Origin: Nitrospinota bacterium
GTDB taxonomy: Bacteria; Nitrospinota_A; UBA7883
Direction: 5' to 3'
NCBI GenBank assembly: GCA_029881335.1
Contig: JAOUMU010000004.1
Span: 1 to 59,056 of the forward strand
Length of the DNA stretch: 59,056 nucleotides
Shown here: positions 7,520 to 27,608 of the stretch, piece after piece
Layout of the letters: the number at the start of each line of letters is the position of its first letter
Numbering within the stretch: position 1 is the first letter of the stretch
Made by a program: the position numbers and the translations under genes
The notes under the pieces: generated by a model
The model's database searches: none
Told to the model about the DNA's origin: nothing
The model's input: only the letters and a program-made list of their open reading frames with translations

Positions 7520-7546
7520 TGATTTCCCCAGGAAGGTTTTGAAGTT

Positions 7547-7948
7547 ATGGGTATTTTCATCGCGGAAATCGCGATATTGCTGATAGTTCTGGCGGTGGTG
7601 GCTTTTCCTCTGTTGGGAAACGTCGCGGGCCAATCCGCCCCGGAGCTTATGGAAAACGAGCTTTCCGACCTGTTGTACAGGAAGGAAGCGGCGTACACCG
7701 CTTTAAAGGATCTGGATTTTGATATGCGAACCGGCAAAATCGGCCAGGAGGACTACGATGGGATGAAGCGTAGCCTGGAAGCCGAGGCGATCAGTCTGCT
7801 GGGGATTATCGACAGTATCGCAAAAGGGAAAGCGACAACCGCCGTTGATGGCAAGACGGACAGGAAGAGGGGGAAATTCTGCCCCGAATGCGGGGCCAGG
7901 GTGGAGAAAACCCACAAGTTCTGCCCCGAGTGCGCCAACAAGCTCTAG
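7547..7948 (+). CDS. Membrane-anchored protein with CcmI-N-like helix and C-terminal zinc ribbon
   Basis: N-terminal TM, LKDLDFDMRTGKIGQEDY segment, two FCPEC knuckles. Confidence 0.7.
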   Translation: MGIFIAEIAILLIVLAVVAFPLLGNVAGQSAPELMENELSDLLYRKEAAYTALKDLDFDMRTGKIGQEDYDGMKRSLEAEAISLLGIIDSIAKGKATTAVDGKTDRKRGKFCPECGARVEKTHKFCPECANKL

Positions 7949-7977
7949 CCCCAGGCTACGCCGGAGAATATGACCTT

Positions 7978-8508
7978 TTACCCGGTTTCCTTGCTGGTCA
8001 CAATTTTGGCTATTACCGAGTCATCTTGCGCCATGGCGTAGACCCACACGGCAGCGCCCCCATTTTTCGCCGTCCACTTGGCAGAAGCCATTCCTTCCAA
8101 CGGCGCCATTTCCGCCATGGCCCAGTCCTTGGCGGGGAACCCCGCCGCGAACCTCCCCATAAGGTCGTCCAGGGTTATTTTCGCAAATAAGGTGACTGAA
8201 TTTTCGTGCACCCCCGCCACGAAATTGTCTACCCTGGCCCCTGGAATGACGGGCAACGCGATACTGGAAAGCTGATCCTCCCCGCTCAACTTGCCGCCAA
8301 AGGAGAGGATGTATTCCTTGCCGTTGAAATGAAAAGAGGCCTTTTTCTCTCTGTATGGAGCCTGTCCGGCCTCGGCGCCGCGTTTATCATTTCCTGGGTC
8401 CTTTTCCTGCTCTGGCGCCTGGGAAACTGGCCCGGAACATGCCGCAACCAGCAAAGCCATGATCAGGGCCGCCTTTGCCGGTCTTGGCGGTTCAATCGTT
8501 TTTTTCAA
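7978..8508 (-). CDS. Hypothetical lipoprotein
   Basis: Lipobox LVAAC. TTG start at 8508 overlaps the end of the upstream Crp gene; alternative ATG at 8460. Confidence 0.55.
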   Translation of the reverse strand: MKKTIEPPRPAKAALIMALLVAACSGPVSQAPEQEKDPGNDKRGAEAGQAPYREKKASFHFNGKEYILSFGGKLSGEDQLSSIALPVIPGARVDNFVAGVHENSVTLFAKITLDDLMGRFAAGFPAKDWAMAEMAPLEGMASAKWTAKNGGAAVWVYAMAQDDSVIAKIVTSKETG

Positions 8509-9172
8509 CAAAGCTCTTGTCGACAAATAAAGATCCATCCCTGATTTCGACCATCCGCTCGTCAATGAGCAGATGTATCGCGCGGTACACGGTTTTTTCA
8601 GAAACTCCCAGCCGCTGGGATATATTGCGGTGGGTAGGCTTTTTCTTGATTCTATATTGTTCACCGAACAGCTCTCCCGACTTCACAGCCAGTGATTTGA
8701 TAAAGTTTGACACACGCTCGGCCCCGTCCATGGTTCCAAGCCTTTCAATTATCGCGTTGGCCTCATTGAGCCGATCAATAAGGATCCGGGCCATGTTTAC
8801 ACCAATGGCTGGATAAAGGATCATAAGGTCCAGAAACTTTTCCCCGCCGATCCTGTATAGCAGGCATTTGTCCAGGGCCACTACGGTGGCGCTGCGCTGG
8901 GAATGGGAAAAGAGCGACATCTCCCCCACGATATCCCCCTGTCCGATGACGTACACAACGATTTCCTTGTTGTCGTCATTGTCAATGGTGATCTGCAGGG
9001 ACCCTCTGGCCAGAAAATATAATTCGGAGCCCTGGTCCTTGCGGTAGAAAAGGTATCCCCCCTTGTCCAGATTAACAGGAGTGAGGCTCCGGCCCACATC
9101 CTCCTTTTCTTTTTCGGAAAGGCCATTGAGGACCAGGACGCCATTTAACAATGAGCCCTTGATCATGACCAT
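8492..9172 (-). CDS. Crp/Fnr family transcriptional regulator
   Basis: cNMP-binding domain (GEMSLF...RSA) and C-terminal HTH (THRNISQRLGVSEKTVYR). Confidence 0.9.
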   Translation of the reverse strand: MVMIKGSLLNGVLVLNGLSEKEKEDVGRSLTPVNLDKGGYLFYRKDQGSELYFLARGSLQITIDNDDNKEIVVYVIGQGDIVGEMSLFSHSQRSATVVALDKCLLYRIGGEKFLDLMILYPAIGVNMARILIDRLNEANAIIERLGTMDGAERVSNFIKSLAVKSGELFGEQYRIKKKPTHRNISQRLGVSEKTVYRAIHLLIDERMVEIRDGSLFVDKSFVEKND

Positions 9173-9212
9173 TCCCGCTGACGAGCCACCGGGGATACAG
9201 CGGCATCGTAGG

Positions 9213-9707
9213 TTAGTTGGAGAGAGCCTTCCCCACCATCAGAGCAGCCTTGTCCTTGCATATACCTTTTGCTTCCGCGATTTCGCTGACGATCAGCTCA
9301 TATGCGTTATCGAAAACTTGTTGCTCCACAAAGGAGAGGCCCTTGGATCCCTTCAGCTTGAACAGGGCTCTGTAAACGTGGGCCACATCTGAAAGGGCGC
9401 CGGTTTTTATCATTTCCAGGAAGCGTTTTTGGCGCTTGTTCCAGTTCGGCTCCACCTCCTCCAGTATCCCGTTTTCGAGAATGGACAGAATCTTGGGCAC
9501 ATCCCGTTTTGCGATGACTCCCCTCAATCCCAGAGAATCGGCCGTCCGGGTGGGCGCCATGATGGTCATGCCGCTTTTGCGAAGGCGAATGATATAGAAG
9601 GCATCGGCCATGCCAGCAAACTTAAGTTTTTCAATCTTTTCTATCGTTCCCAAACCGTGGGAAGGATAAACGACCTTTGTCCCGACTTTGAACTGCGCTA
9701 ATGACAT
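9213..9707 (-). CDS. carD: CarD/CdnL family transcription factor
   Basis: FKVGTKVVYPSHGLG N-terminus and NWNKR with the conserved Trp. Confidence 0.9.
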   Translation of the reverse strand: MSLAQFKVGTKVVYPSHGLGTIEKIEKLKFAGMADAFYIIRLRKSGMTIMAPTRTADSLGLRGVIAKRDVPKILSILENGILEEVEPNWNKRQKRFLEMIKTGALSDVAHVYRALFKLKGSKGLSFVEQQVFDNAYELIVSEIAEAKGICKDKAALMVGKALSN

Positions 9708-10121
9708 TATAAGATATACCCACCGAGCGGAAAAAACAAAATAAGTATAGCAGATACACCCAACCGCGTCAATTAATGCGCACTGCTTCCTCTTCTTTCA
9801 GACCTGTTTTCAGGTTAAAAAGCAGCCTAATCCCTTGGTAAGAAAGAGATTGCCGCTTTGATAATATATTTTGCGGCCGGGGGCGGGAATGCGGCCTTTG
9901 GCCCCTGATAATAGAATTGAAATTGCTAGCATTTCGCCGCCAGGGCTTCCCAGCAGAGCAGAATGGCTGACGCAAATGGGTCAGGCCACTGGTGGGCGCC
10001 GGGGGGGCTTGCCACAGGGGGCTTGCCTCATAAGGATTCCCTCGCCAGGCTCGATCAGGCTCATGTGGGCTCATGTTATGGCGGATCAGCTATTGAGCAG
10101 GAGAGGGTGATGGAAGGAGCG

Positions 10122-10158
10122 AAAATAAAAAAGCGGCCCGCATACATTTGCGGGCCGC
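10122..10158 (-). terminator. Intrinsic terminator of the small secreted repeat-protein gene
   Basis: Perfect 10-bp stem GCGGCCCGCA/TGCGGGCCGC (10133-10158) followed on the minus strand by TTTTTTATTTT. Confidence 0.8.
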
Positions 10159-10204
10159 CGGGTTTATAATGCGCGGGGCGCTTCACACACCTCGCAACCG
10201 GGTA

Positions 10205-10504
10205 CTACTTCTTGTGAAAGTTCCCGGCGTAGGGAAGACCATAAAGATCTCCTCCAAAATCGATCTTTTCGAACTTCATCTCGGTGTCATGCCCACCGCT
10301 CACGTGGGGCAGGCCATAGCCATCGGAGCCATAGTCAAGCTGTGGCTGTCCTTTATCCATATGTACATCGGATACATGAGGAAGCCCATACAGTTCCGCT
10401 CCGTTCATCCTGTCCCATGAAGCTGCGTAAACCGCCGTGGTAACCATTGTCATGAAAGCGCCAAGAACTATCGCCGCTGTGAATATCGACTTGATTAAAC
10501 TCAT
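10205..10504 (-). CDS. Small secreted protein with three YGLP(H/Y) repeats
   Basis: GGAGG RBS before ATG 10504, Sec signal ending VYA-A, three ~25-aa repeats, own terminator. Confidence 0.75.
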   Translation of the reverse strand: MSLIKSIFTAAIVLGAFMTMVTTAVYAASWDRMNGAELYGLPHVSDVHMDKGQPQLDYGSDGYGLPHVSGGHDTEMKFEKIDFGGDLYGLPYAGNFHKK

Positions 10505-10578
10505 ATCAACCTCCATCGCCATACTGGCGTCGCTATCTATCCAGAAGCCTGTCGGCTTCTTTTATAACCATTCTAATA

Positions 10579-10595
10579 TGCATGAGTGGCGCCAA
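10579..10595 (-). promoter_or_regulatory. Possible sigma54 -24/-12 promoter
   Basis: Minus strand TTGGCGCCACTCATGCA has exact GG-N10-GC spacing, ~75 bp upstream of ATG 10504; three mismatches to YTGGCACGNNNNTTGCW. Confidence 0.35.
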
Positions 10596-10936
10596 CATAA
10601 CTATTTGAATGTATTGGCTCCCAAGCTATGCTTTCTTATAACCGCCATTTGTGGCCTATATATCAGACATCCTTGTCACATCTTGCGGGATATGGCCCTC
10701 CGAAAAGCCCCATAAAATGTGGAGCGCTCCAGTCAGTTTATTTATCATCAGTGGCGGGCCGAATGGGACCAGATCGGGATTTTTACGCGCCCATATAGAT
10801 TCGCTTGCAGGATCCATCCGGTTACGAATCACCGCTTACTGGCGCCCTGCTCCCGCTTTCCCTCGCGTGACGAATTGGGTGTTTATAGGCAGTTTCGCCC
10901 AGGTCGGTTTTGTGATAGAATTTCTCGCTTGGCGAT

Positions 10937-11011
10937 GGGGCAGTAGCTCAGTTGGGAGAGCGCAGCGTTCGCAAGCTGAGGTCAGGGGTTCGATCCCCCT
11001 CTGCTCCACCA
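10937..11011 (+). tRNA. tRNA-Ala (anticodon CGC), 75 nt, anticodon stem lacks one base
   Basis: GGGGCAG/CTGCTCC acceptor stem with G3:U70, D arm GCTC/GAGC, T loop TTCGATC, encoded CCA. Confidence 0.88.
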
Positions 11012-11046
11012 TTCTCACTTCCCATGAATTTCCATAGGGTCCAGGA

Positions 11047-11346
11047 TTGCCAGGCAAAACATGGCCTGCAATTGAGGAGCCAAGATTGGCTGAATCCGAA
11101 GGCGCTTCCCCCGAGAGTAAAATGGCTTTATCCGAAGTTAGTCTTGAATCCGCCGAAAAGAAGGCCGCCGACAAGGTTGAAGTCACAATTCTTCAGGAGG
11201 CCCTCAAGCAGTTTAATGGCAATGTGAAGGAGATAGTAAAATGTCTGAACATGCCTGCAGGTGCAATCCATATGAAGCTCAACTATCCTCCGCCTGTGGA
11301 GTATGAACAACCGAGGCTTGATCCCCAGGGCGCCAGAGGACTATAA
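11047..11346 (+). pseudogene. Possible remnant carrying a degenerate Fis-type HTH (C-terminus of an NtrC-like regulator)
   Basis: AEKKAADKVEVTILQEALKQFNGNVKEIVKCLNM resembles the HTH_8 tail of enhancer-binding proteins; no AAA+ domain and no clear start. Confidence 0.35.
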
Positions 11347-11512
11347 CCTATGTCCAAACGAAAGGATTCGATCCATAATACCTGCAAAGTATCTGATGAA
11401 CCTCATGCCACAGGATTATTGAGACCATTTATATATGCGCCGGTTTCCAGGAGGAAGCAAGAAAGCATTCCCCCACCTGCATACCAGGCCTGCCGCGTGC
11501 CCACGCCGAATA

Positions 11513-14500
11513 TTACGGTGTGGGCGGGCTGTTATGTTCTGGGTGAAACAGGGAGTAGACGGCGGGGATCAGCACCAGCGTGATAAGCGTAGAGCTCAAA
11601 AGACCCCCGATCACCACCCGCGCCAGAGGCGCCTGGGCGTCCGCGCCTTCTCCGATTCCAAACGCCAGGGGTATCAGGGCCAGGATGGTGGTAAGGGTGG
11701 TCATCAGGATCGGCCGTAGCCGACGCCTGCCCGCCTCCACCACTGCGTCGTGGATGTTCATGCCGCTCTCCCGTAGTTGACCCGCCTGGTCCACCAGCAA
11801 AATGGCGTTGTTTACCACTATCCCTCCCAGCATTATCAGGCCGATGTAGGACTGGACGTTGAAGGTGGTGTCTGTGAGGAAGAGCATCAAAAGCGCTCCC
11901 ACCACCGCCAGGGGGACGGATGTCATCACCACCAGCGGAGTTCGCAACGATTCATACAGGGAAGCCAATACCATATACACCAGCGCCAGGGCCATCAGCA
12001 GGGAGATAACCAACTCCCTGGTGGCCTTCTGCTGTTCCTGGTAATTCCCGGCCACCAAAATGTCATACCCGGCGGGGCGGGGAATCTGGTCTAGCGCCTG
12101 TTGCGCGTCGGAGGCGATAGAGCCCATGTCCCTCTCCTTGATGTTGGCCCGCACCGTCACCACCCGCTGCTGGTCCTTGCGGGTGATCAGCAACGGGCCC
12201 CGGCCAGGCTCCGCGGTGACCAGGTTTCGAAGGGGCGCCTGCTCTCCAGAGGCGGTGGTGAGGGTAAGGTTCAATATCTCATCCATGGAGCGCTTTTCCG
12301 CGTCCTTCAGTTGGGCGAAAATGCGATAGGAGTTTCCCCCGGCCCGGAACTCGCCCGCCCTGGATCCGGCCACCGCCGTTTCCAGGGTTTCCGTCACATC
12401 CCGGACACTGAGTCCCATATCCGCAGCCTTGTTCCGGTTGATCCGGATCTGTTGCTGCGGGACACCTGCGTCCTGGTCCACCTCTATATCGGTGACGCCT
12501 GGGACTTTTGCGATGGCCTTGGCGGCTCGCTGGGCCAGGGCGTTGATTATATCCAGCTCGAATCCCCGGATTTCCAGGATAAGCCCCTGGTCTCCTCCCA
12601 GCAGCCGCTCCAGCAGGAACTGGCCTTGCGGCGCCGTCACCCGGATATCCATGCCGGGGATCGCCCCGGAAAGAATGTCCCGCAGGTCGTCGGCGATCCT
12701 CTTGTTGGATCTTTCCCTTTCAGCCGAGGGGGATAGGGAAAGATTGATGGAGCCTTGCGCGGCCTGGTTCGGGTTCCAGCCGGAAGCCCCCACGCTCGCC
12801 ACCCAGGCTCGCATTTCCGGCACGGCGTCTTGCGCCATCCGCTCCATACGCTTTGTTTGCCGATCCACCAGGTCCAGTTTGGTTCCCACTTCCATCTTGC
12901 CGTTGACCCGCACCTCCCCTTCGTCGCTGGGCGGCAAGAACTCCGATCCGATGAACGGCAAAAGCAGCAGGCTGGCCCCCAGGGCCGTCACGGAAAGGAT
13001 GACCGTGAGCCCTCGATGACCCAGCGCCAAATCAATCAGGCTCCGGTACCCGGTCTCCAGGCGATGAAATATGGTGGCCGCGCTGGCGGCGAGGCTCTGG
13101 ATCCATCCTGTTCTCCCGGCCCCCACGCCTCCGCCGGAGGCCAGCAGGTTAGAAGCAAGCATCGGCACCAGGCTCAAAGAGACGATCAGCGAGCAGGCCA
13201 GCGAGAATATGATCACATAGGCCAGCTCCTTGAAAAGAACGCCGGTGATTCCCCTAGTGAAGGCCAACGGGAGGAAGATCACAAGAGTGGTCAGGGTGCT
13301 GGCTATTATCGCCGGGGCCACCTCCATAGCGCCTTCCACCGAGGCCACCTTGGGCTGTTCATGGTTTTCATTGCGCCGTCTATAGATGTTCTCCAGCACT
13401 ACGATGGAACTATCCACCATCATCCCCACACCGAGAGCCAGGCCCCCCAGGGTCATCAGGTTCAGCGTGAATCCGGCGAAAAAAAGCAATGCGAAGGCGC
13501 CCACCACGGAGATGGGAATAGCCAGAGCGATCACCACCGTGCTGCGGACGTTTCGCAGGAAAAAGAGCAATACCAGCACCGCCAAACCGCCGCCGTATAC
13601 CACCGATTGGGCCACATTGAAGATGGACCTTTCTATGAAGTTACCCTGGTTTATCACCGCTTTCACATTGATCTGGGGAAACGCCCTGTTGATGGAGTCC
13701 ACCTCCGCCAAAACCCCCTTTGCCACCTCCACAGTATTGGCGTTCGATTGCTTTCTTATACCGGCCCGCAGACCTCGCCAGCCATCGACGCGGACCGTGC
13801 GCGTCTGCTTCTCGTATGTGTCCACCACTTCTGCCACCTGGCCGATCCTGACGGCGGACCCATCCTTCTGAAAAATGATAGTGTCGCGAATTTCCTTCAG
13901 GTCTGTGAACTCCGCCGGCGCCCGCAGGGTCACCTCGTATTTTCCCTCTTCGATCTTGCCCGTGGGTAGGTCCAGGTTGGCGTTCCGGATCGCGTTGGTC
14001 ACAAGGTTGATCGGCAGGCGCAGGGCGGCCAGCTTGTCCGGATCGATTTCTATCCTGATCTCCCTTTTGAACTCGCCCCATGTGTCCACCTGGGCCACGC
14101 CGGGAACCCGCGCCAGGCGGTAGCGGATCTGGTCATCTATCAGCTCCGTGAGTTCCACCGGATCGAGCTTACTGGAAATGCCGAGTATGATAACGGGGAA
14201 AGTGTTGACATCGAACTTGCTTACCCTGGGCCTGACGATATCGTCCGGAAATTCATTTATCTCGTCTTCCAGTGTGGCCTGGACATCAACCGAGGCGGTA
14301 TTGATATCCGTACCCCAGGCGAAAGTCACCCTCACATTGCTGTTTCCATCGGAGGAGATTGAGTTCATCTCCTCAACGCCGGGGACCGTGGCTACTATTT
14401 CCTCGAGAATCTGCGTTATAAGCCGCTCCATTACCTCCGGGCTGGCGCCTTCGTATTGCGTGCGGATGCTCAGGGTGGGCAATTCGATATCGGGAAGAAG

Positions 14501-18003: not shown

Positions 18004-18999
18004 TCATCCAGTATGGACCCGGCCTCCACTGGCCAGCAGGCGGTCCACAGCGTGGATCGCTTTTTCGAATCGCTCATCCCACGAGCCGCTGATCTTCACA
18101 AATGGCCTGTCGCGCGATTCCAGCTCATGGAGGCAGCGCTCATGGAACCATTTGCGCTTATGGGGAAGGTAGCGTTGCGGATCCTTCACGAACGGGGTGT
18201 CCATGTCCAGTAGGAGGTATAGATCATACTGCCGTTTTTCCGCTTCCTCCCTGATCCGTGGGGGGCAGTTATCGAAAAGCGCCTCGCTCCATATGGTGGT
18301 TGTGATAAGGTCCGTGTCGCAGAAAAGGATTCGGTTGGCCATCCGGGCCATCGCCTCCTCGGAAGCCGCCTGCCCCCTGGCGATTCTGGGTATGTCCTCC
18401 GGATAGCATTCATCGTTCTGCAGGTTCAGCATCCCCCTGGCGTATTCGCTGACATATGCGGTGTCATAATGCGCCGCCAGATTTTTGGCCATGGTGCTCT
18501 TGCCGGCTGACTCGGGGCCGAACAGGCACACGCGCAATGCGTAATATGGCCGGACGCAGGGAGGGATGTATTTCCAGTTTGTCATAGGGTCGGCGCGCAG
18601 GGCCTCGCCGGAGATCGGCGCCAGTTCCCTGGCGTGGTCCACGGGGACGTACCTGGCCCCCAATACCTCCGCCAGCCGATATCCGTAATCCTCCGAGGCG
18701 AAGACGTAATCCGGCCCGGAGGAGACGAAGCGCCGGATGCTGGCGAGCCATATGTCCCAAAAATCGGGATGCTCATGTGGGAACTGGGGATTCTCATCGG
18801 CGCAATGGACCACATTCACATCTGGGAACATCTCCCTCATCCATCGATACCGCAGATCACCGGGGATAGGCTCCGCCTGGATGGTGGCCACCATCACCGT
18901 AAGCTCTTTCACATAGTTGCGGGCGAAATCCACCAGGTATTGATGCCCCAGGTGTGGGGGCAGGAACTTGCCCAGCAGCATGCCGGTTCCCTGTTTCAT
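18004..18999 (-). CDS. nadR: NadR-like NMN adenylyltransferase / ribosylnicotinamide kinase without HTH
   Basis: GKFLPPHLGH nucleotidyltransferase motif, GPESAGKST P-loop, LFCDTD; ATG overlaps the pnuC stop. Confidence 0.88.
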   Translation of the reverse strand: MKQGTGMLLGKFLPPHLGHQYLVDFARNYVKELTVMVATIQAEPIPGDLRYRWMREMFPDVNVVHCADENPQFPHEHPDFWDIWLASIRRFVSSGPDYVFASEDYGYRLAEVLGARYVPVDHARELAPISGEALRADPMTNWKYIPPCVRPYYALRVCLFGPESAGKSTMAKNLAAHYDTAYVSEYARGMLNLQNDECYPEDIPRIARGQAASEEAMARMANRILFCDTDLITTTIWSEALFDNCPPRIREEAEKRQYDLYLLLDMDTPFVKDPQRYLPHKRKWFHERCLHELESRDRPFVKISGSWDERFEKAIHAVDRLLASGGRVHTG

Positions 19000-19547
19000 A
19001 AGGTTCGCCTCCATGCAAAATATCCGATGGTGGCCAGGGCCAGGAACACCATGTAGAGTCCCGCGGTGAGGGAGAGCCCCTTTAGCGCGTATATGGCCAC
19101 ACTGATAATGTCCACAGTGATCCAGATCAGCCAGCTTTCCAGAATCTTTTTGGCCATGAGCCATTGGGCGATAAGGCTAAGGGTGGTGGTGACAGCGTCG
19201 GCGAAGGCGAAATCGGCGTCGGTGTATCTCTCCATTGTGTAGCCCAGGGCCGTGGCGGTCGCCATGGCTATCACGCTCCAGGCTGCCGCCCCCAGGCGTG
19301 AAAGCCGCGTGACCTTCAGCTCGCTATGCTTTTGGCCACCGTGCAGCCAGTTGTGCCAGCCGTATATCTGCATGAAGATATAAACGAACTGCAACCCCAT
19401 GTCCGAGTATAGCCTGGCGTCGAAAAAAATAAATATGTAGAGGGTCACCATGACCAGCCCCGTGGGCCAGCACCATATGCTCTGCCGCACGGTCAGCCAT
19501 ACACACGCCAGGCCGAATAAAACGGCGCTTGTCTCGATCAAACTCAT
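18996..19547 (-). CDS. pnuC: Nicotinamide riboside transporter PnuC
   Basis: IWCWPTG, QIYGWHNW, AQWLMAKKILESWLIWITVD; adjacent to nadR. Confidence 0.9.
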   Translation of the reverse strand: MSLIETSAVLFGLACVWLTVRQSIWCWPTGLVMVTLYIFIFFDARLYSDMGLQFVYIFMQIYGWHNWLHGGQKHSELKVTRLSRLGAAAWSVIAMATATALGYTMERYTDADFAFADAVTTTLSLIAQWLMAKKILESWLIWITVDIISVAIYALKGLSLTAGLYMVFLALATIGYFAWRRTL

Positions 19548-19822
19548 TTTGCACGTTGGTTTATTTTCAGGGTACGATAATGATAACAGACTGCCGGGAG
19601 TGTCGTTTATCGCTGATATCGAAACCCAGAGGAGATGTCCAACCCAAGAATCTCTGTGGATCATATGGTACGTTCCAATACCAGTCACGTTGTCTTGAAT
19701 CAGGACAGACGGTTCGGCTGTAGGGATTTTGTGACCCCAAACCTTGAAAACCATGAGTGTCTAACCTGTTTAAAAACAAAACGTAATCCTTGGTCGCTAG
19801 ACTGAATTTAATTGTCGATGGT

Positions 19823-19839
19823 TTGGCCCGGATCCTGCT
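19823..19839 (+). promoter_or_regulatory. Putative sigma54 -24/-12 promoter of the multiheme cytochrome cluster
   Basis: TTGGCCCGGATCCTGCT: GG-N10-GC with two mismatches to consensus, 70 bp upstream of ATG 19910. Confidence 0.55.
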
Positions 19840-19909
19840 CTAAGTTAGCGGGAAAACTGAATCAAGCTGGCAACCAAGGATAATTTCTTGGGGGTATGAG
19901 GGAATTTTA

Positions 19910-20812
19910 ATGGACTATTTAGTGATGAGTAGAAAAAATTATATTAGAATGCTTCCGATCCTGGCCATTGCGGTGGCCGCGGGGATGTTCACCGGTTGCG
20001 GTGATGTGACGATCAACACGGATCAGTTTGGCTTGCCTGTCAACAATAATAGTACAGGCGACCTGGGCGGGAAAGGGCAAACCCCCGATCCCTCCTGGCA
20101 CAACTCATATCTGGATGGCCGTCACTCATCCTTTGTGTGCACCGATTGTCATGTTTCCACTGCCAGGACCGATATGGGAGAGACGGACCTGGCGCGGTCC
20201 CCTTTCCGGGAAACCCCTAAGGACCAGATATGCTCCCGGTGCCACATGGGGGATTACAACAGAACCTCCCTTTTCAATCACACAGTGGCAAATACAGGGA
20301 CCTACTGCAACTCCTGTCATTACTCAGACAGCTTCACCGCGCATACCAGGATTTCAGCCGATACGTATCACGGCCTGATCGGCGGATCCTGCTCATCTTG
20401 CCACTCCAACAGGACTCCCGGCAACCACCGCGCCGATGGCAGGGCTTCAGCGTGCGAGAGATGTCATAGTTACCCCAGTTGGAGCGGCGCTTCTGGCGCT
20501 CACACGGCCACCTCCAATTGCGTGAGTTGCCACGCCGCCAGGACTCCTGGCAATCACCAGAGGGATGGAAGAACCTCCAAATGTGAGAACTGCCACAATT
20601 ATCCGGATTGGAGTAACGCCTCCTTCAGCCATTCCGGGGTTTCCACCGGATGCGCCAGCTGCCACAGCAGGCATTACAGTGGTTACGCTTGCGAGTCTTG
20701 CCACACCTCCGGGATAAGCTGGTCTTATAAGCACTCAAGGGTGCGATCCGATGGGTGCATTGCTTGCCATGACGGCGACGGGCATGGCGACGGGCATGGC
20801 GATGATGACTAG
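19910..20812 (+). CDS. Decaheme c-type cytochrome, lipoprotein
   Basis: Lipobox MFTGC; 10 CxxCH; His/Asp tail HDGDGHGDGHGDDD. Confidence 0.9.
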   Translation: MDYLVMSRKNYIRMLPILAIAVAAGMFTGCGDVTINTDQFGLPVNNNSTGDLGGKGQTPDPSWHNSYLDGRHSSFVCTDCHVSTARTDMGETDLARSPFRETPKDQICSRCHMGDYNRTSLFNHTVANTGTYCNSCHYSDSFTAHTRISADTYHGLIGGSCSSCHSNRTPGNHRADGRASACERCHSYPSWSGASGAHTATSNCVSCHAARTPGNHQRDGRTSKCENCHNYPDWSNASFSHSGVSTGCASCHSRHYSGYACESCHTSGISWSYKHSRVRSDGCIACHDGDGHGDGHGDDD

Positions 20813-21053
20813 CATTCAACTTGAAGCATGTAATGTGGGGAGCATCCGGAAATTGTCCGGATGCTTCCTCGTTTCACGGCTTGGATAGGTGTACATTGGG
20901 TATAATGAAGCTGGAGACGCGCAGGATCGGCGCAAAGGTTGATAAGGCTCCAGGCTCCCGGAGTTTCTCGGAGTTTGGCTTGTAGTGAAAGAGGTCTTAT
21001 CATGAAGATGGGTCGTTTGTAGTTGATGAAGGCTGGCTGGTTCTGAATTAAAT

Positions 21054-21797
21054 ATGGAAAAACAAAATAAAACAAGTTACCTTGCGCCTCTGTTTGCGGC
21101 TTTGGGAATAGCCGTGATGACAGGGCTATTCGCCGGTTGTGGAGACATCACGATCGACACGGGTCAGCTAGGCCTGGGGGACAATTCTAACGACTTATCC
21201 AATATCGGCCTTTCTCCTGATCCCTCCTGGCACAACTCCTACCTGGTGGGCGCCCACGGCAGCTTTGCTTGTGGGGACTGCCATGCTTCTACAGCAAGGA
21301 CGGGGGCCAGTTCCCCGCTTCTGCGGGAGATGTCCGGTGACCAGATATGCGCTCGATGTCATATGGGCGATTACAACAGGACGAGCCTTTTTAACCATGG
21401 CGCATACAAGATCGGAACTCATTGCAACTCCTGTCATTATTCGGACAACTTTAAGTACCACACCAGGCCCAGCCACAATAAATATCATGAAAAGATATCC
21501 TCCTCGTGCGTTGCCTGCCACCCTGGCAAAACCCCTGGGGGACATCTGGCCGATGGACGAACCGGCTTATGTGAAATGTGCCATAAATATCCGAACTGGC
21601 AGGGGACGGGCTTTAGCCATTCGGGCGTCACCTCCGGTTGCTCCAACTGCCATAGCAAGCATTATTCGGGCTTCCCTTGCGAGTCATGCCATACCTTCGG
21701 AATCAGCTGGGGTTTCAGCCACTCCAGGGTGCGCTCCGATGGGTGTCCGGCTTGCCATGGGTCTGATGGACATGGCGGCGGGGGTCATGACGACTAA
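21054..21797 (+). CDS. Octaheme c-type cytochrome, lipoprotein, paralog of the upstream gene
   Basis: Lipobox LFAGC; 8 CxxCH; shares PDPSWHNSYL, CHMGDYNRTSLFNH and HSRVRSDGC with 19910..20812. Confidence 0.9.
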   Translation: MEKQNKTSYLAPLFAALGIAVMTGLFAGCGDITIDTGQLGLGDNSNDLSNIGLSPDPSWHNSYLVGAHGSFACGDCHASTARTGASSPLLREMSGDQICARCHMGDYNRTSLFNHGAYKIGTHCNSCHYSDNFKYHTRPSHNKYHEKISSSCVACHPGKTPGGHLADGRTGLCEMCHKYPNWQGTGFSHSGVTSGCSNCHSKHYSGFPCESCHTFGISWGFSHSRVRSDGCPACHGSDGHGGGGHDD

Positions 21798-21996
21798 ATA
21801 CGGCTTGATTTTGGCCTGCCCTGTCCCCTATATTGGGGGCGGGAGCGTGAGTGGACCGGTTGACCGGTCCTAAGTTGGGAACGAATTGGTATTCCAATCC
21901 AGAGTGGAGAGGGGTAGGGGTGTGGTGTCCGCCTTGGCGCCTCGCTTTTCTGCGTATTAAGACAAGGCAGAATTAATTATCTTTCAAGGGGGTCTT

Positions 21997-24735
21997 TTGT
22001 CGCGAAGCGGTTTTCTAGCCATTCTGCTGGCGGCGGCGCTTTCCGCTGCCTCGGCCCATGGGCAGGGTCTGGGTTCGCTGATCAGCCCTGGCCCTCTGGC
22101 AAAACCTCATGTAGAGGTGGAAGGGCTCACCAACTGCGTTAAATGCCATGCCATTGGCGCCGGAGTGCCCAGTGAAAAGTGCTTCGAATGCCACAAGGAG
22201 ATATCCAGCCGAATCACCTCCAACAAAGGCTACCATGCCAGCGTGGCGAAGAAGAAATGCCACGACTGCCACGAGGATCATAAGGGGCAGGAGTACAAGA
22301 TGATCCAGTGGCCCGGCAAGGATATGAACCGGTTCGAGCACAAGGAGAGCGGCTACCTGTTAGATGGCAAGCATGTCCAGGTGAGGTGCGAGAAATGCCA
22401 CACTGCCAAGACCAAACAGGCGCGGCAAAGCTTTCTTTTGACATCGGACACATGCCTCTCCTGCCACAAGAAGGACGATGTCCACAAGGGCGTTCTGGGT
22501 GACAAGTGCGAAACCTGCCACACCACCAGCGGCTGGAAGGGGAAGGATCTTAAGTTCGATCACGACAAGGCGTACAAGCTTGAATATTCCCATATAAAGA
22601 CCCCTTGCGAAAAGTGTCACCCGGTGATAGGGCAGTACAAAGTTCCCGGCTTTGAAAAATGTGTCACCTGCCACAAAAAGGACGATGTGCACAAAGGCGC
22701 CCTGGGTGACGCTTGCGACAAGTGCCATGTCGCCAGGACGTGGAAGGGCAAGGATGTCCTTCTAAACCACGACAAGTTCTACAAACTAGATACAGGGCAC
22801 CGGAAGACCCCGTGTGAGAAGTGCCATCCGGTGAAAGGGCAGTTCAAGGTTCCCGCTTTTGAGCAGTGCGTCACCTGCCACAAAAAGGACGATGTGCACA
22901 AGGGCGCTCTGGGTGACAGGTGCGACAAGTGCCATGTCGCCAGGACGTGGAAGGGCAAGGATGTGCTCTTCGACCATGGGAAGGTCTACCAGCTGGAAAA
23001 ATCCCACGCTGCGGTCAAGTGCGAAAAGTGCCATCTGGTAAAGGGCCAGTATAAGGTGCCCGATTACAAGCTGTGCGTCACCTGCCACCGAAAGGACGAT
23101 GTGCACAAGGGTTCGCTGGGCGACACTTGTGACAAGTGCCACGACGAGAGCAAGTGGAAGAAGGTGATGATGAATCACTCCAAGACCAAATACCCCCTGG
23201 AAGGGAAGCACCTGAAAGTGGAATGCGCCAAGTGTCACCCCAGGGCCAAGGATAAGATTTACAAGGTGGAAAGGTTCGATCGCTGCTCTTCCTCTGGCTG
23301 CCACGATACACGGCAGCGGGGGGATGTGCATGGCGAGCAGTTCCGGGGCCGAGATTGTAATGAGTGCCACAATCTGAACGGGTGGATGCCGCCGCTTTTC
23401 TCCCACTCGGATGCGAACTACAGAGGATATAAACTGGATGGGAAGCACGCCGGAGTGGCTTGCGCCAAATGCCATGTCAAAAGCGCTTTCGGTGTGGTCA
23501 ACTATCGGCCCATACGATACGACACCTGTATGGGCCCCGGCTGTCACGACATACCCAGCCGCGGCGCCATCCATGGCAAGCAGTTCAACGGGACCAATTG
23601 CGACACATGCCACGACCTGAAAGGGTGGAAACCATCGGTGTTCTCCCACGACTCCCCATCCTACACCGGCTACAAGCTGTATGGCAAACACCGGCCGCTC
23701 AAATGCGAGCAGTGCCACGCAAAGAGCCTGTTCGGCGTGGTGCATTACCGGCCTGTAAAGAGTGGTATGTGCGATGACTGCCACAAGGATCCGCATCGCG
23801 GCCAGTTCGGCTCCACCACGTGCGCCACTTGCCATACGGAAGATGACTGGAAAAAGCTGCAGTTCGACCATAACCGCAACAGCCGGTTCGCCCTATACGG
23901 CAAACATGTGGGACCAGCCTGCGCCAAATGCCACCTGAAGAAGGGAATCCTGGGGGACGCAATGGTGTGGAAACCTCTGGGCAGGGAATGCATCGATTGC
24001 CATGCTGACAAGGATAAGCACAAGGGCGCCCTGGGCAAGCAATGTGACCAGTGCCATACCGAGCAAACATGGAAGACGGATAGGTTCGCCCACGAGCTGA
24101 CAGGATTCCGGCTGGAATACGCCCACCTGAGGCTCCACTGCTCCGATTGCCATGACAAGAAGGACAACTGGGCCGGCGTGGGCGAGAACTGCCGCAACTG
24201 CCACACAGACCCGCACTTCAACCAGTTCGGGAGTGCATGCTCCGACTGCCACAACGCCAGGGATTGGGAGCCGCGCAAGTTCAAGCACGCGCTGTTCGGA
24301 TTCCGCCTTGAGGGGGCTCACAGAATAGTGGAGTGCAAGGTGTGCCACCAGAACAGGCTGTACGCCAACACACCCACGGAGTGTATAGACTGCCACAGGG
24401 CCGAGTTCTTCAGCGCTGGCGCCGCGGCGATACACTCCCCGGACAATATCGACTGCCAGTTCTGCCACAGGCCATACTCCTGGAGGCCGGCATCGGGCCA
24501 CATGCACCGATCCATGACATTTTCCGGAGCCCATAAAAGGATCCAGGGCCAGTGCGACTATTGCCACACAAACGACTATGGGCTCAAGTGGCCAGGCGCC
24601 CAGACGGAACAGGATTGCGAGTTCTGCCACATGGCCGATTACAGGAAGGAGCATAGAAATTGCCCGACCACGTGTGGCTTGTGTCATAACACTAACGATT
24701 TCGATGATGGCAAGGAGACCATAAGGTGCGACTAA
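21997..24735 (+). CDS. Very large multiheme c-type cytochrome (34 CxxCH + 2 CxxxxCH), Sec-exported
   Basis: Signal peptide ending AHG-Q; 36 heme-binding motifs counted by hand in a three-heme periodicity. Confidence 0.92.
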   Translation: MSRSGFLAILLAAALSAASAHGQGLGSLISPGPLAKPHVEVEGLTNCVKCHAIGAGVPSEKCFECHKEISSRITSNKGYHASVAKKKCHDCHEDHKGQEYKMIQWPGKDMNRFEHKESGYLLDGKHVQVRCEKCHTAKTKQARQSFLLTSDTCLSCHKKDDVHKGVLGDKCETCHTTSGWKGKDLKFDHDKAYKLEYSHIKTPCEKCHPVIGQYKVPGFEKCVTCHKKDDVHKGALGDACDKCHVARTWKGKDVLLNHDKFYKLDTGHRKTPCEKCHPVKGQFKVPAFEQCVTCHKKDDVHKGALGDRCDKCHVARTWKGKDVLFDHGKVYQLEKSHAAVKCEKCHLVKGQYKVPDYKLCVTCHRKDDVHKGSLGDTCDKCHDESKWKKVMMNHSKTKYPLEGKHLKVECAKCHPRAKDKIYKVERFDRCSSSGCHDTRQRGDVHGEQFRGRDCNECHNLNGWMPPLFSHSDANYRGYKLDGKHAGVACAKCHVKSAFGVVNYRPIRYDTCMGPGCHDIPSRGAIHGKQFNGTNCDTCHDLKGWKPSVFSHDSPSYTGYKLYGKHRPLKCEQCHAKSLFGVVHYRPVKSGMCDDCHKDPHRGQFGSTTCATCHTEDDWKKLQFDHNRNSRFALYGKHVGPACAKCHLKKGILGDAMVWKPLGRECIDCHADKDKHKGALGKQCDQCHTEQTWKTDRFAHELTGFRLEYAHLRLHCSDCHDKKDNWAGVGENCRNCHTDPHFNQFGSACSDCHNARDWEPRKFKHALFGFRLEGAHRIVECKVCHQNRLYANTPTECIDCHRAEFFSAGAAAIHSPDNIDCQFCHRPYSWRPASGHMHRSMTFSGAHKRIQGQCDYCHTNDYGLKWPGAQTEQDCEFCHMADYRKEHRNCPTTCGLCHNTNDFDDGKETIRCD
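22453..23150 (+). repeat. Intragenic tandem repeat with 207-nt (69-aa, three-heme) period
   Basis: CxxCH-(K/R)KDDVHKG units start at 22453, 22660, 22867 and 23074; the units at 22660 and 22867 are nearly identical in DNA over ~100 nt. Confidence 0.85.
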
Positions 24736-25982
24736 GGTTGACTTTGGCCTTTGTGGCCGCGCTATTCACCGTATGGGCGCTTCCCGCCTCCGCTGTTAAC
24801 CTGAGCGGTCGGCTGGCCGGATCTTACTATAATCACGATGACGATGTGTCCGAGCAGGACCGCAGCGTCAGTAGATTCAAGCTGCGTCTGGACATCACCG
24901 ATTTCATGGCTTACGACTCGGCTTTCCACTTGAAGACCATCACTCGCTCCGTTTCCGGGCACGACTATAACGGCAACCTTCCCAGCCAGAGGATCGATCG
25001 GGCCGAGTTCGAATTGAAGGGCTTGGGCGGATTCATGGACTTGCATCTGGGCAGGATGAACATCCAGGATCTTTTCTCCACCAGGGTGGACGGAGCCAGC
25101 GTCGACTTCCACCTGGGCAAGACTTTTGGCCTGGGAGTGTTCGGCGGGCAGACTCCGGATCCTTTTTCCGACCAGATCAGCTCCAGCTATTCCACTTACG
25201 GGGCATACCTCTTCAATAGAGGACAGGCCACCCGCTTCTCTCTGGGATATGTGGCCACCGCCAAGGGGGGGGAGGATTCCACATACATTTCAGGCATGTA
25301 CTATTCCCTTTCATCCAGGGCTTTCAATTGGATGGCTGATTTCAGGATGGATGAGGACAAGGTGAGGAGCGAGTGGCGGATCACCGAGGCGATGGTGAAT
25401 CTGACCTACAGGCCAAGCAGAAGGGCCAAGGTGAACCTGACCTACAGCGAGTACCGTTCCATACAGCTGTTTGAATCGATGGACTACAGCGCCAGCTACG
25501 ACATGCAAAGGGCCACCAGGGTTTCAGGCGATCTTTTTTTCCTCCACAGCTCTATGTTGTACGCACGGTTCGACGCGAGGATGCGCGACTTCGACAGCAG
25601 CACGGCGGCTATGTTCATTGGCGGTTTCAGGCAGGACGATATGTTCGGATTGCTTAATCTGGACATATCCTACAGCGGAATAAACTATTTCACGACTACC
25701 TCGGACAGAATCAATATTGTTTTGGGCGCCGACTTTTTGCGGGACCTGAGTGGCGAGATAGAGATTACATCCATCAACAGCAAGCAGGAAGGGCAGAACA
25801 ACGCTATGACCCAGTTCGTTTATGGCGCCACTGTGGACTGGAGATGGAACAACCTGTTCGTATCGGCCCTGCTCCAGTTTTCCAACGAGAAGTTCCTGGA
25901 TGTGGACGCTGTTTACCAAAACAAAGCCTCCGACCATTTCGCCACCACTTCCTACTATCTGAACATGGGGTACAATTTCTAG
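24726..25982 (+). CDS. Outer-membrane beta-barrel protein (putative porin of a porin-cytochrome conduit)
   Basis: Signal peptide ASA-V, alternating amphipathic strands, BAM-type C-terminus YYLNMGYNF; overlaps the cytochrome gene by 10 bp. Confidence 0.82.
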   Translation: MRLRLTLAFVAALFTVWALPASAVNLSGRLAGSYYNHDDDVSEQDRSVSRFKLRLDITDFMAYDSAFHLKTITRSVSGHDYNGNLPSQRIDRAEFELKGLGGFMDLHLGRMNIQDLFSTRVDGASVDFHLGKTFGLGVFGGQTPDPFSDQISSSYSTYGAYLFNRGQATRFSLGYVATAKGGEDSTYISGMYYSLSSRAFNWMADFRMDEDKVRSEWRITEAMVNLTYRPSRRAKVNLTYSEYRSIQLFESMDYSASYDMQRATRVSGDLFFLHSSMLYARFDARMRDFDSSTAAMFIGGFRQDDMFGLLNLDISYSGINYFTTTSDRINIVLGADFLRDLSGEIEITSINSKQEGQNNAMTQFVYGATVDWRWNNLFVSALLQFSNEKFLDVDAVYQNKASDHFATTSYYLNMGYNF

Positions 25983-26017
25983 GATGCTGGCCTTGGCTGT
26001 TCGTCGGGATACCTGAC

Positions 26018-26443
26018 ATGGAACTGTTCAGGGTGTACACCGTCCGGGAAAACTATCAGGATCGCGACTCTGTGGTGGTGGACTGGTTCTGCGAGAATCG
26101 TAAAGCGCCGGTCGCGGCGCTGGAGCTGATGGTGGAGAACCTAGTGGATCTCACCGCCGTGGAGAAGACCGAGGCGCAAACTCGGCTGAACCAGCTTCTG
26201 ACCTCCGGCGAAACCGATGAACTGGCCCAGTACATCAGGGCCACTACCGGGTTCGAGGTGAAGCGGACAAGGATCGACATCCCTTTGCCGGATGGAAGAA
26301 AGGTTCCGGACTTCTCCGGCAAGTCCGCCAGCATGGAAGGGGAATATTTTCATATTCATGAAAACAGTGAATACAACCTGTCTATCCCCATCACAGGATT
26401 TGTAGACCTTTCCGAACCGCCCAACACCTTTTCGGTGGCGTAG
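26018..26443 (+). CDS. Hypothetical cytoplasmic protein
   Basis: 141-aa ORF from ATG 26018, 35 bp after the porin stop; no recognisable motif. Confidence 0.6.
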   Translation: MELFRVYTVRENYQDRDSVVVDWFCENRKAPVAALELMVENLVDLTAVEKTEAQTRLNQLLTSGETDELAQYIRATTGFEVKRTRIDIPLPDGRKVPDFSGKSASMEGEYFHIHENSEYNLSIPITGFVDLSEPPNTFSVA

Positions 26444-26456
26444 ATAAGAAGCCCTA

Positions 26457-27608
26457 CTATTTTATGGCCGGGTTCAGGCTGACCACATATTTTTGCGTTC
26501 CGGAGACCTCCTCCTGGGAGAAAGACGCAGAGCTCCAGAACATGATGTTTGGACCGTCCAGAGCTGAGCATTCGTCCGCGCTGACCATCCCGTCATTATC
26601 CTTGTCCCGGACATTGACATCGCATTCCGGAGTGTCCGCAATAGGATCGAAAGTGTCGCCATATCTCTCTGAAGTGTGCAGCAAACCCAGGTAATGCCCA
26701 ACTTCATGAGCCATGGTGTTCGCCACGGTGTTGATGTTCTTTCCCTGCAGGCTGGTGAACCCTCCGAAAGTGTTTATCGCTACACCGGAATTGGCGGAGC
26801 CCTGGACCAGTTGCGGGCCGGGCGCTCCTCCGGCGATTCCCAGAATCCCCTGAAAGCCGAAAGAGTCGACAAAGAAAATATTGATATGACCTTTCTTGTA
26901 GTTGGCGGACATCATGAAGAGGGCGTCCATATCGTCCGGCTGGCCGTTATTGTCAAAATCCGTGTCCATGTTCACATGGATATGTTTCCTCGCCTCGTCA
27001 GAGGTCAGGTATATAACCTCCACCGCCCCAACCGTAATATTCATCAAGCCCATGGACGCCTGGAAACGCGCCAGAACTTCGTTCAGGATCGGCTCCGCCT
27101 GGGCGGAGACATCCCCGGACGCGATTATAAAAAGGTTCAGGTTCAGTCGGGAGCCGGGAGCGGATTTTACATCGGTGTAGATTCCCACTTCTTTGGGTTC
27201 CGGCTCTCTGCTGCGGGTGTGCTTTATCCAGAAGGTCCACACCCCAGGCGGAAAATCGTAGTCTCCGCCATGGGGAATGGTCATCTCCACGGCGCTTTGC
27301 CCATAACCGTTGGCGAAGTTGCGGCCGATCAGGTCGTTACTCCCGCCATCGATAAAGCTTTCTCCGGACGGTCCTGAAACCTTTATGATATCCATGTCCG
27401 AGGCGTTTGCTCCATCGGCCATGATGGTAAGTGACACCGACCCTGCGGGAACCTGGATGGAGTAAGGGCCCGCTATCTGGCCAGGCGCCAGGAACTCAAC
27501 GGCCATGGCGTCCGGGTGACGGGGTGGCGGATCCCCATTCCCCTTGTCGCATGAGGCCGTCATGGCCGCCAGAGCCAGTAATATTAAAGTGATTCCACCA
27601 TTTCTCAC
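26457..27608 (-). CDS. Metzincin-type zinc metallopeptidase lipoprotein (M43/pappalysin-like)
   Basis: Lipobox MTASC, HEVGHYLGLLH (HExxHxxGxxH), Met-turn NIMFW, DKDNDGMVS Ca-loop. Confidence 0.8.
   Translation of the reverse strand: MRNGGITLILLALAAMTASCDKGNGDPPPRHPDAMAVEFLAPGQIAGPYSIQVPAGSVSLTIMADGANASDMDIIKVSGPSGESFIDGGSNDLIGRNFANGYGQSAVEMTIPHGGDYDFPPGVWTFWIKHTRSREPEPKEVGIYTDVKSAPGSRLNLNLFIIASGDVSAQAEPILNEVLARFQASMGLMNITVGAVEVIYLTSDEARKHIHVNMDTDFDNNGQPDDMDALFMMSANYKKGHINIFFVDSFGFQGILGIAGGAPGPQLVQGSANSGVAINTFGGFTSLQGKNINTVANTMAHEVGHYLGLLHTSERYGDTFDPIADTPECDVNVRDKDNDGMVSADECSALDGPNIMFWSSASFSQEEVSGTQKYVVSLNPAIK

Follow-up and report, generated by a model that had tools for sequence, protein, structure and literature searches.

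Porin–cytochrome conduits and the locus under study

Diderm bacteria pass electrons to and from minerals, electrodes and partner cells through porin–cytochrome conduits. To our knowledge, a solved structure exists for the Mtr type only, namely the MtrAB porin–cytochrome complex (6R2Q), and all well-studied periplasmic components carry at most 14 hemes; the C-terminal end of MtrA faces outward. In c7 cytochromes, by comparison, the ligands of each tri-heme module follow the order His, His, CxxCH, His, CxxCH, CxxCH. Here, we describe two adjoining genes in a 59,056-nucleotide (nt) stretch of DNA from a Nitrospinota bacterium (hereafter the window; positions 1–59,056 of the forward strand of contig JAOUMU010000004.1, assembly GCA_029881335.1), the first encoding a 36-heme cytochrome c and the second a beta-barrel of the outer membrane, with lengths given in amino acids (aa):

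21997..24735, + strand: 36-heme cytochrome c, 912 aa, 12 tri-heme modules (open reading frame (ORF) with a TTG start)
24726..25982, + strand: 22-strand outer-membrane beta-barrel, 418 aa, with a signal peptide, no plug and a C-terminal Y-x-F (AlphaFold2, alignment and comparison of loci)

This pair most probably conducts electrons between the inside of the cell and its surroundings. It is best read as a conduit that joins a PCC3-type wire to a small barrel of a different family, conserved across the phylum; the kind of machine is known, and the combination is new. Judging from sequence comparison and structure prediction, we place the probability that the pair forms a porin–cytochrome electron conduit, with a single chain spanning both the periplasm and the outer membrane, at roughly 65%.

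The PCC3 clusters of iron-oxidising Betaproteobacteria, as set out in the portions of He et al. 2017 (PMC5566968) and Hoover et al. 2023 (PMC10734462) available to us, combine a large porin, a periplasmic cytochrome of 21–27 hemes, an extracellular cytochrome of 10–35 hemes (the median given by He et al. being 34) and an inner-membrane protein of ~300 aa. A periplasm-spanning or capacitor role has already been proposed for their periplasmic cytochromes (PMC10734462). The window cytochrome is homologous to the 24–27-heme proteins of this type (33–36% identity) and shares their heme counts in multiples of three, their repeats and a density of ~25 aa per heme that lies within the published 22–39; a homologue of the inner-membrane protein is encoded in the genome and adjoins the pair in 4 of 14 relatives. 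In contrast to PCC3, the cytochrome carries 36 hemes rather than 21–27, and the barrel, with 418 aa and 22 strands, is unrelated by sequence to the betaproteobacterial porin, which is described as 640–740 aa long with a TPR head and ‘up to 42’ predicted transmembrane regions. Moreover, the putative outer cytochromes are small lipoproteins of 10 and 8 hemes that are absent from most relatives, and in the window genome the membrane protein lies outside the cluster.

Geobacter-type Pcc systems (OmaB-OmbB-OmcB, Ext) provide a second point of comparison. The portions of Shi et al. 2014 (PMC4245776) drawn on here give their porins 18–22 strands and their periplasmic cytochromes 5–14 hemes, the largest having 400 aa and 14 hemes, with no atypical motifs. 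These systems likewise comprise a porin, a periplasmic multiheme cytochrome and lipoprotein outer cytochromes, with the cytochrome gene adjoining the porin gene, and the 22 strands of the window barrel fall within their range, a likeness in strand number. Unlike the 5–14 motifs typical of these cytochromes, the window protein has 36, two of them CxxxxCH.

With MtrCAB, MtoAB and PioAB, the locus shares a predicted barrel-sheathed cytochrome whose C-terminal end would point outward, and with MtoAB and PioAB a two-gene core that has no outer cytochrome in most relatives of the window. It departs from MtrB/PioB in that the barrel has no PF11854 match and 22 rather than 26 strands, a genuine PF11854 porin being encoded elsewhere in the genome, and from MtrA in carrying 36 rather than 10 hemes.

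The poly-c7 cytochromes GSU1996 and OmcQ are also chains of tri-heme modules, thought in the available part of one report to be derived by duplication (PMC11492766). The window cytochrome resembles them in this design but differs in module number (12 against 4), in its coupling to an outer-membrane barrel and in ligand order, which the alignment of its modules gives as His, His, CxxCH, CxxCH, His, CxxCH, unlike that of c7.

Finally, clusters from Zixibacteria, Ignavibacteria and Bacteroidia (loci L095–L097) contain homologous barrels after poly-heme cytochromes, together with the same membrane protein and flavoprotein. They differ in that their barrels have an extra N-terminal region of ~130 aa and in that the heme load is spread over two to four cytochrome genes; we found no description of these clusters in the literature. 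Nor did we find the cytochrome–barrel pair described for Nitrospinota in the portions of the literature available to us (including PMC10839748, PMC10203281, PMC9769843 and PMC11475568), with the iron-gene tables of PMC10839748, which may bear on this, lying outside the search.

A 36-heme cytochrome of twelve tri-heme modules

The 912-aa ORF is a real gene. The encoded protein contains 34 CxxCH and two CxxxxCH motifs (aa 430 and 511), giving 36 candidate heme sites at 25.3 aa per heme, and comprises 74 Cys, 77 His and 12 Met residues. Cutting it after each third heme motif yielded modules of 92, 83, 69, 69, 69, 76, 81, 74, 74, 65, 72 and 73 aa, followed by a tail of 15 aa. Alignment of the 12 modules recovered the pattern W..F.H...L.G.H...CxxCH...Cx(2,4)CH...H...CxxCH, with three further His per module, each present in at least 90% of the modules; each module would therefore hold three bis-His hemes. 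The repeating tri-heme arrangement of 36 motifs in 12 modules, which the first-pass annotation had read from the letters, was thus borne out by both the motif scan and the module alignment. Three parts of the protein stand out beside the regular modules, the signal peptide (like the lipobox calls below) having been read from the sequence by eye, with no predictor:

21997..22056, + strand: Sec-type signal peptide, aa 1–20, ending A-S-A before H, no lipobox
23284..23547, + strand: stretch with both CxxxxCH motifs, aa 430–436 and 511–517 (motif scan and orthologue alignment)
24469..24732, + strand: module 12 and tail with the spare Cys pair C889 and C911 (modules and orthologue alignment); would emerge on the outer side

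The four Cys columns of the two CxxxxCH motifs are occupied by Cys in 25, 27, 28 and 28 of 28 aligned orthologues, respectively. The two spare C-terminal Cys, already pointed out as possible disulfide partners, are present as described, with Cys at the C889 column in 17 and at the C911 column in 23 of the 28 sequences, and the conserved pair is compatible with a disulfide. An AlphaFold2 model of the whole cytochrome, computed with the 28 orthologues, reached a predicted local distance difference test (pLDDT) of 49.5 and a predicted template modelling score (pTM) of 0.25, which makes it unusable for shape or length.

At the family level, seven stretches of the protein match PF14522 (Cytochrome_C7; 122.1 bits against a cut-off of 24.8, E 8.2e-36). 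A search with the whole cytochrome against PDB sequences using phmmer returned no matches at E<=0.01, and the profile of the 12 modules recovered MtrC (E 8.6e-9), GSU1996 (3OV0, E 1e-8), a c7-like protein and, weakly, MtrA (E 3.9e-6); the module profile thereby matches the heme triads of MtrC and MtrA, and the match to 3OV0 denotes distant relatedness only. The NCBIfam model TIGR04257 (nanowire_3heme, cut-off 40 bits) gave no match at E<=0.01, and GSU1996-type membership was rejected on this ground. Hence, of the suggestion that the protein is a tri-heme-domain polymer like GSU1996, the polymer of the c7/c3 superfamily stands and the assignment to the GSU1996 type does not. TIGR03508, which describes DmsE/MtrA-family decaheme cytochromes, scored 24.9 bits, below its cut-off of 192.2.

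A word-based search retrieved 1989 relatives. The 120 among the matches listed carry 21–63 heme motifs, nearly always a multiple of three, so a 36-heme chain is unexceptional in its family; source names among the listed relatives include Nitrospinota, Nitrospirota, Acidobacteriota, Zixibacteria and Betaproteobacteria. One betaproteobacterial homologue (P0108) shares 36% identity with the window protein across 75% of its length. Relatives of P0108 belong to clusters of a membrane protein, a 24–27-heme cytochrome, a second cytochrome and an outer-membrane protein. Such clusters, found in Gallionella, Methylotenera, Piscinibacter and Burkholderiales records, have the PCC3 layout, and the window cytochrome is therefore of the PCC3 type.

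Cytochrome and barrel form a conserved gene pair

The barrel gene starts with a GTG at 24726, inside the last codons of the cytochrome gene, so that the two overlap at the cytochrome stop codon, with AAGGAG upstream of the start. Across the phylum, both genes co-occur in the same 27 of 33 genomes; the six genomes with neither are 76–99% complete. Adjacency on one strand was found in 25 of 26 other genomes, the remaining one (G002) having both genes on contig fragments, and in all 14 related loci that we fetched the barrel lies directly downstream of the cytochrome on the same strand. The cytochrome followed by the barrel is a strictly conserved, translationally coupled gene pair.

Two further cytochrome genes precede the pair in the window:

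19910..20812, + strand: lipoprotein-like deca-heme cytochrome, 300 aa, 10 CxxCH, lipobox-like F-T-G-C, His/Asp-rich C-terminal tail (ORF, heme count, PF14522/PF14537); candidate surface partner
21054..21797, + strand: paralogous lipoprotein-like octa-heme cytochrome, 247 aa, 8 CxxCH, lipobox-like F-A-G-C (ORF, heme count, Pfam); same BLAST subjects as the 300-aa protein

BLAST found homologues of the 300-aa protein upstream of the pair in 2 of the 14 related loci, and a lipoprotein-like multiheme gene of any kind occupies this place in 3 of them; what is conserved as the core is thus the pair of cytochrome and barrel genes. The two lipoprotein cytochromes each finish in a short tail rich in Gly, His and Asp (20780–20812 and 21765–21797), with G-H-G-D repeats and then an acidic end, that has the look of a metal-binding sequence. 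A promoter and terminator scan of 19600–26600 showed no excess over shuffled sequence (7 against 4.0+/-2.5 and 8 against 6.7+/-2.5).

A small barrel distinct from the MtrB/PioB and PCC3 porins

An AlphaFold2 model of the barrel built from 18 sequences has 22 strands (pLDDT 86.3, pTM 0.75), and the alignment shows invariant C-terminal Y416 and F418. In structural comparison it comes closest to the 22-strand barrels of TonB-dependent transporters (Z 18–20, 340–367 residues aligned), as with 5t3r_D (Z 19.8, 364 residues, root-mean-square deviation 4.4), and Foldseek returned generic barrel matches such as the FimD usher and porins; MtrB does not figure among the matches listed in either search, which carries no weight for or against kinship. 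Since the first strand already begins at residue 25, the barrel has no plug domain, and its wide lumen would therefore stand open unless filled. The long loops, 80 residues in total, lie on the side opposite the termini, and the turns amount to 30 residues.

Pfam (E<=0.01) and NCBIfam assigned no family to the 418-aa protein, and the Pfam search gave no PF11854 (MtrB/PioB) match. Membership of the MtrB/PioB family was rejected on this result together with the sub-threshold TIGR03508 score of the cytochrome. Homology to the betaproteobacterial PCC3 porin was likewise rejected: a search of the ORFs of 32 PCC3-like loci with a hidden Markov model (HMM) of the barrel gave nothing at E<0.001 and a single match at E 0.008, and hhalign against two such porins gave a probability of 0.3%, the comparison profile consisting of those 2 sequences. 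The barrel does align over its full length with the outer-membrane proteins of 535–551 aa from Zixibacteria, Ignavibacteria and Bacteroidia (hhalign 98.6%, E 6e-16, 377 columns).

Predicted threading of the cytochrome through the barrel

We predicted the complex of the mature barrel (residues 24–418) with cytochrome residues 540–912, each with its own alignment. Three runs gave interface scores (ipSAE) of 0.79, 0.78 and 0.76, against 0.00 for the best of 3 controls; in calibration, 116 of 157 solved complexes attained the ipSAE mark, as did 2 of 215 mismatched pairs. At least 84% of contacts are common to the runs, with partner pLDDT of at least 73. On the barrel side, contacts involve alternate lumen-facing residues all round and the conserved long loop 245–259, and on the cytochrome side residues 701–828, corresponding to modules 10–11:

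24058..24468, + strand: modules 10–11, aa 688–824, predicted inside the barrel; densest invariant non-heme run (complex prediction and orthologue alignment)

These two modules had stood out by their invariant residues prior to the complex prediction, with W692, D738, W757, F762, F769, R770, E772, R787 and Y789 invariant outside the heme motifs across the 28 orthologues. Modules 10–11 are predicted to sit in the barrel lumen. All 25 least-error residue pairs link cytochrome positions 741–790 with barrel residues at the loop end; given the topology that outer-membrane proteins usually have, module 12 would lie outside and modules 1–9 in the periplasm.

The same complex could be oriented the other way, with module 12 in the periplasm and modules 1–10 (~30 hemes) outside as a tethered single-chain nanowire, an arrangement we regard as quite improbable. 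Module number does vary at both ends among orthologues, and the orientation we favour was derived from contact residue lists, without coordinates; yet the least-error contacts fall at the long-loop end, those of residues 701–723 are sparser, and no route is known by which ~690 residues with 30 hemes would be exported across the outer membrane. Lineages without upstream lipoprotein cytochromes also tend to gain C-terminal module-12-like units, as if this were the outer end, and the outward-facing C-terminal end of MtrA argues in the same direction.

The first-pass annotation had viewed the cytochrome as a periplasmic heme wire or a capacitor-like electron store. Taken as a full account, this would make the protein a free periplasmic wire or capacitor that is not inserted in the outer membrane, with the barrel an ordinary porin sharing the operon. 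The Sec signal without a lipobox, the load of 36 hemes (one per 25 aa) and the resemblance of the N-terminal module to small soluble cytochromes of the tetraheme and MtrA types (weak NCBIfam matches) all fit such a protein, and a capacitor role is discussed for PCC3 homologues in the available part of PMC10734462. We nevertheless consider a free wire unlikely, given the strict co-occurrence in the same 27 of 33 genomes, the adjacency in 25 of 26, the overlap of the cytochrome stop with the barrel start, a plug-less 22-strand barrel far wider than a solute porin requires, and the complex score of 0.78 against 0.00 for controls. The heme-wire idea was reasonable though incomplete, as the cytochrome is half of a conserved gene pair with a barrel through which it is predicted to be threaded; storage may be a second function of its periplasmic part.

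Several considerations weigh against the single-chain conduit. Support for all of its components is computational, coming from sequence comparison and predicted structures. The complex score is a model confidence and may partly reflect likeness to MtrAB, because that complex is solved and the module profile weakly matches MtrA; the part of the cytochrome offered to the barrel was residues 540–912 only, the orientation rests on contact residue lists plus the usual outer-membrane protein topology, and an extended shape of the cytochrome is assumed by analogy. Wider relatives of the barrel (E ~1e-20) bear SPOR-like or other N-terminal domains, and the 149 among the matches listed are all free of heme motifs, so that membership of the barrel superfamily does not presuppose a cytochrome partner. 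Furthermore, no homologue of the PCC3 membrane protein was found on the contig of the window.

Proposed electron path and its inner-membrane end

In the conduit that we propose, all 36 sites would bind bis-His heme. Modules 1–9 (27 hemes) would hang into the periplasm as a wire of ~20–30 nm, modules 10–11 are predicted to lie within the barrel lumen, and module 12 would emerge at the cell surface, where the upstream lipoprotein cytochromes of 10 and 8 hemes might prolong the path, a part that extra C-terminal modules would play in other lineages. At the inner membrane, electrons would enter or leave through multiheme/NrfD modules or through the PCC3-type di-heme-b protein with its iron–sulfur (FeS) flavoprotein, encoded elsewhere. 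Flow may run either way, in mineral or metal oxidation or in reduction.

The genome offers candidates for this inner-membrane end. It encodes cytochrome c assembly genes, heme-copper oxidases, modules of NrfD, FeS and multiheme proteins, and ~25 ORFs with at least three heme motifs. The PCC3-type pair of genes is located on another contig:

Contig C162, 8468–10792 (locus L098, 1469–3790): PCC3-type di-heme-b-like membrane protein, 319 aa, then a transmembrane-anchored 4Fe-4S/flavin adenine dinucleotide (FAD) pyridine-nucleotide oxidoreductase, 447 aa

The membrane protein homologue on this contig was recovered with E 1.9e-59, and four weaker paralogues adjoin other multiheme cytochromes. A membrane protein and flavoprotein of this kind adjoin the cytochrome–barrel pair in 4 of the 14 related Nitrospinota loci. 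Among 32 PCC3-like loci, the membrane protein is found in 28 and the flavoprotein in 20; the flavoprotein stands alongside the membrane protein in 20 of these 32 and in 4–5 of the 14 Nitrospinota loci. These neighbourhoods suggest an electron path from a cytoplasmic flavoprotein through the di-heme-b membrane protein to the wire. The flavoprotein may be an overlooked fifth PCC3 component, as the PCC3 papers name the membrane protein and, in the portions available, the flavoprotein was not met there.

The membrane protein also matches the ferric-reductase transmembrane domain PF01794, weakly (E 0.0026), and its FeS/FAD pyridine-nucleotide oxidoreductase partner gives an arrangement like that of NAD(P)H-driven ferric reductases. 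Both features would suit a non-respiratory role, in which the cytochrome serves as a periplasmic redox buffer or in metal handling (assimilatory ferric reduction or detoxification) and the barrel imports or exports metal species. This we think very unlikely: 36 hemes in one chain and 18 in the lipoprotein cytochromes far exceed what a reductase needs, the predicted lumen is filled by the cytochrome, and the nearest published relatives come from iron oxidisers and are discussed, in the portions available, as electron conduits.

If the conduit model holds, the pair would provide a compact two-gene system in which to ask whether a single chain replaces diffusible periplasmic carriers, and would test both the minimum strand number of a cytochrome-sheathing barrel and the evolution of wire length through module gain and loss. 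Nitrospinota are mainly discussed for nitrite oxidation, and the pair, in the window a 36-heme PCC3-type chain with a Pcc-size barrel, is conserved across the phylum; under the model, sediment and groundwater Nitrospinota would become candidates for iron-, manganese- or electrode-linked metabolism. A bolder version, which we offer tentatively and would sooner doubt than adopt, has one polypeptide wiring the whole envelope (N-terminal 27–30 hemes across the periplasm, modules 10–11 in a minimal barrel, module 12 at the surface), its length tuned by evolution at three hot spots and its electrons perhaps supplied by the di-heme-b membrane protein and FeS flavoprotein, acting as a split NOX/ferric-reductase-like module so that the quinone pool is bypassed. 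The phylum would then be constitutively electroactive, because the pair is near-universal and single-copy (27 of 33 genomes), and electron exchange with minerals, metals or partner cells would be core physiology of these nitrite-oxidiser relatives.

The same genome also holds a second, canonical porin–cytochrome system, split between contigs C64 (~7139–12877) and C76 (1–3146; loci L028 and L029). It encodes a tetraheme protein, a 4Fe-4S protein, NrfD, a c554-like triheme protein and a 10-heme MtrA-like cytochrome, then an MtrB/PioB porin (PF11854) divided between the end of C64 (profile positions 6–290) and the start of C76 (251–629), followed by a cytochrome of at least 18 hemes cut by the contig end. 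Three paralogues with two cyclic-nucleotide (cNMP)-binding domains and 4Fe-4S clusters are located on C64 (518–2860), C148 (~7012–10638) and C35 (527–3706), each with a multiheme cytochrome of up to 11 hemes, one of the weaker PCC3-type membrane protein paralogues, or both as neighbours; this repeated module may be a cyclic-nucleotide-regulated point of electron entry. A further weaker paralogue of the membrane protein lies beside a 16-heme cytochrome on C83 (8097–9926).

Age of the repeats and evolution of module number

The second heme motifs of modules 2–5 begin at nt 22453, 22660, 22867 and 23074, a spacing of exactly 207 nt, and Tandem Repeats Finder reports a period of 207 with 3.3 copies and 76% matches over 22453–23141. 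The exact period noted in the first-pass annotation therefore holds, and the repeated units are:

22522..23142, + strand: modules 3–5, three tandem 69-aa (207-nt) units (repeat finder, alignment and module tree)

The further claim that two units are nearly identical in DNA and reflect a recent duplication did not survive comparison. The units of modules 3–5 are identical at 155/207, 143/207 and 157/207 positions (75%, 69% and 76%), modules 3, 4 and 5 share 46–51 of 69 residues in protein, the longest exact repeat is 44 nt (22714 against 22921), and an identity of ~87% is confined to a sub-stretch of ~120 nt. In a maximum-likelihood tree of modules, module 3 of the window pairs with the module at the same position in P0002, an orthologue 77% identical overall (supports 100/99), and module 4 does likewise (97/97); the copies therefore predate the split from this relative. 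Recent duplication was rejected on the unit identity of 69–76% and this position-wise pairing. All copies of the 69-aa unit from this family fall into a single supported clade (11 rows, 96/92), and on this tree the expansion is specific to the family within the phylum and older than the split from the 77%-identical relative, although concerted evolution between copies may be an alternative explanation of their likeness. The unit is single in most of the 28 orthologues, triple in the window, in P0002 and in the 59%-identical orthologue of genome G003, and double in P0005.

The idea that length changes by gain or loss of repeats is upheld by module counts in orthologues. The 28 sequences range from 9 to 17 modules and from 27 to 51 hemes, with 27 hemes in 2 sequences, 30 in 6, 32 in 1, 33 in 8, 36 in 6, 39 in 2, 42 in 2 and 51 in 1. 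Modules are gained and lost at three sites: the 69-aa units, the CxxxxCH-containing modules 7/8 and the C-terminal module-12-like units. Orthologues of 1105–1168 aa in loci L024, L025 and L026 (genomes G024, G018 and G029) have three to five extra C-terminal module-12-like units, and these loci have no lipoprotein cytochrome nearby, as if a fused surface extension had replaced separate outer cytochromes.

Repeats of this kind raise the question of whether the number of units, and with it the total of 36 hemes, was created by assembly error. We compared two public DNA sequencing runs as contigs. Contigs of a public sediment run tile the cytochrome gene without differences; they break at exact repeats of 30–44 nt, and 22900–22934 is bridged by none of the listed pieces, a point in favour of an artefact. 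The copies differ, however, at 24–31% of bases, so that unambiguous assembly is possible, elsewhere in the gene the public contigs show no differences, and P0002 and the G003 orthologue, which come from other assemblies, have the identical 12-module layout. An assembly artefact is therefore an unlikely source of the repeat count, and we give it next to no weight. A 274-nt contig of public run X1 that corresponds to window positions 24196–24469 has 37 mismatches and 2 indels relative to the window at a depth near that of the main contigs, which points to a co-occurring related strain or species with the same gene.

Flanking genes

The barrel gene is followed on the same strand by a further ORF, of which no homologue was found in the 14 related loci and which we did not count in the system:

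25844..26443, + strand: 199-aa ORF overlapping the last 139 nt of the barrel gene; possibly spurious, or with a true start further on

Beyond it, on the minus strand, lies a gene for a lipoprotein zinc metalloprotease with weak M43/reprolysin-like matches (26457–27608). The upstream flank, also on the minus strand (18004–19754), encodes a PnuC-type nicotinamide mononucleotide (NMN) transporter with a NadR-like AAA_28 kinase; both flanks are apparently unrelated to the conduit.

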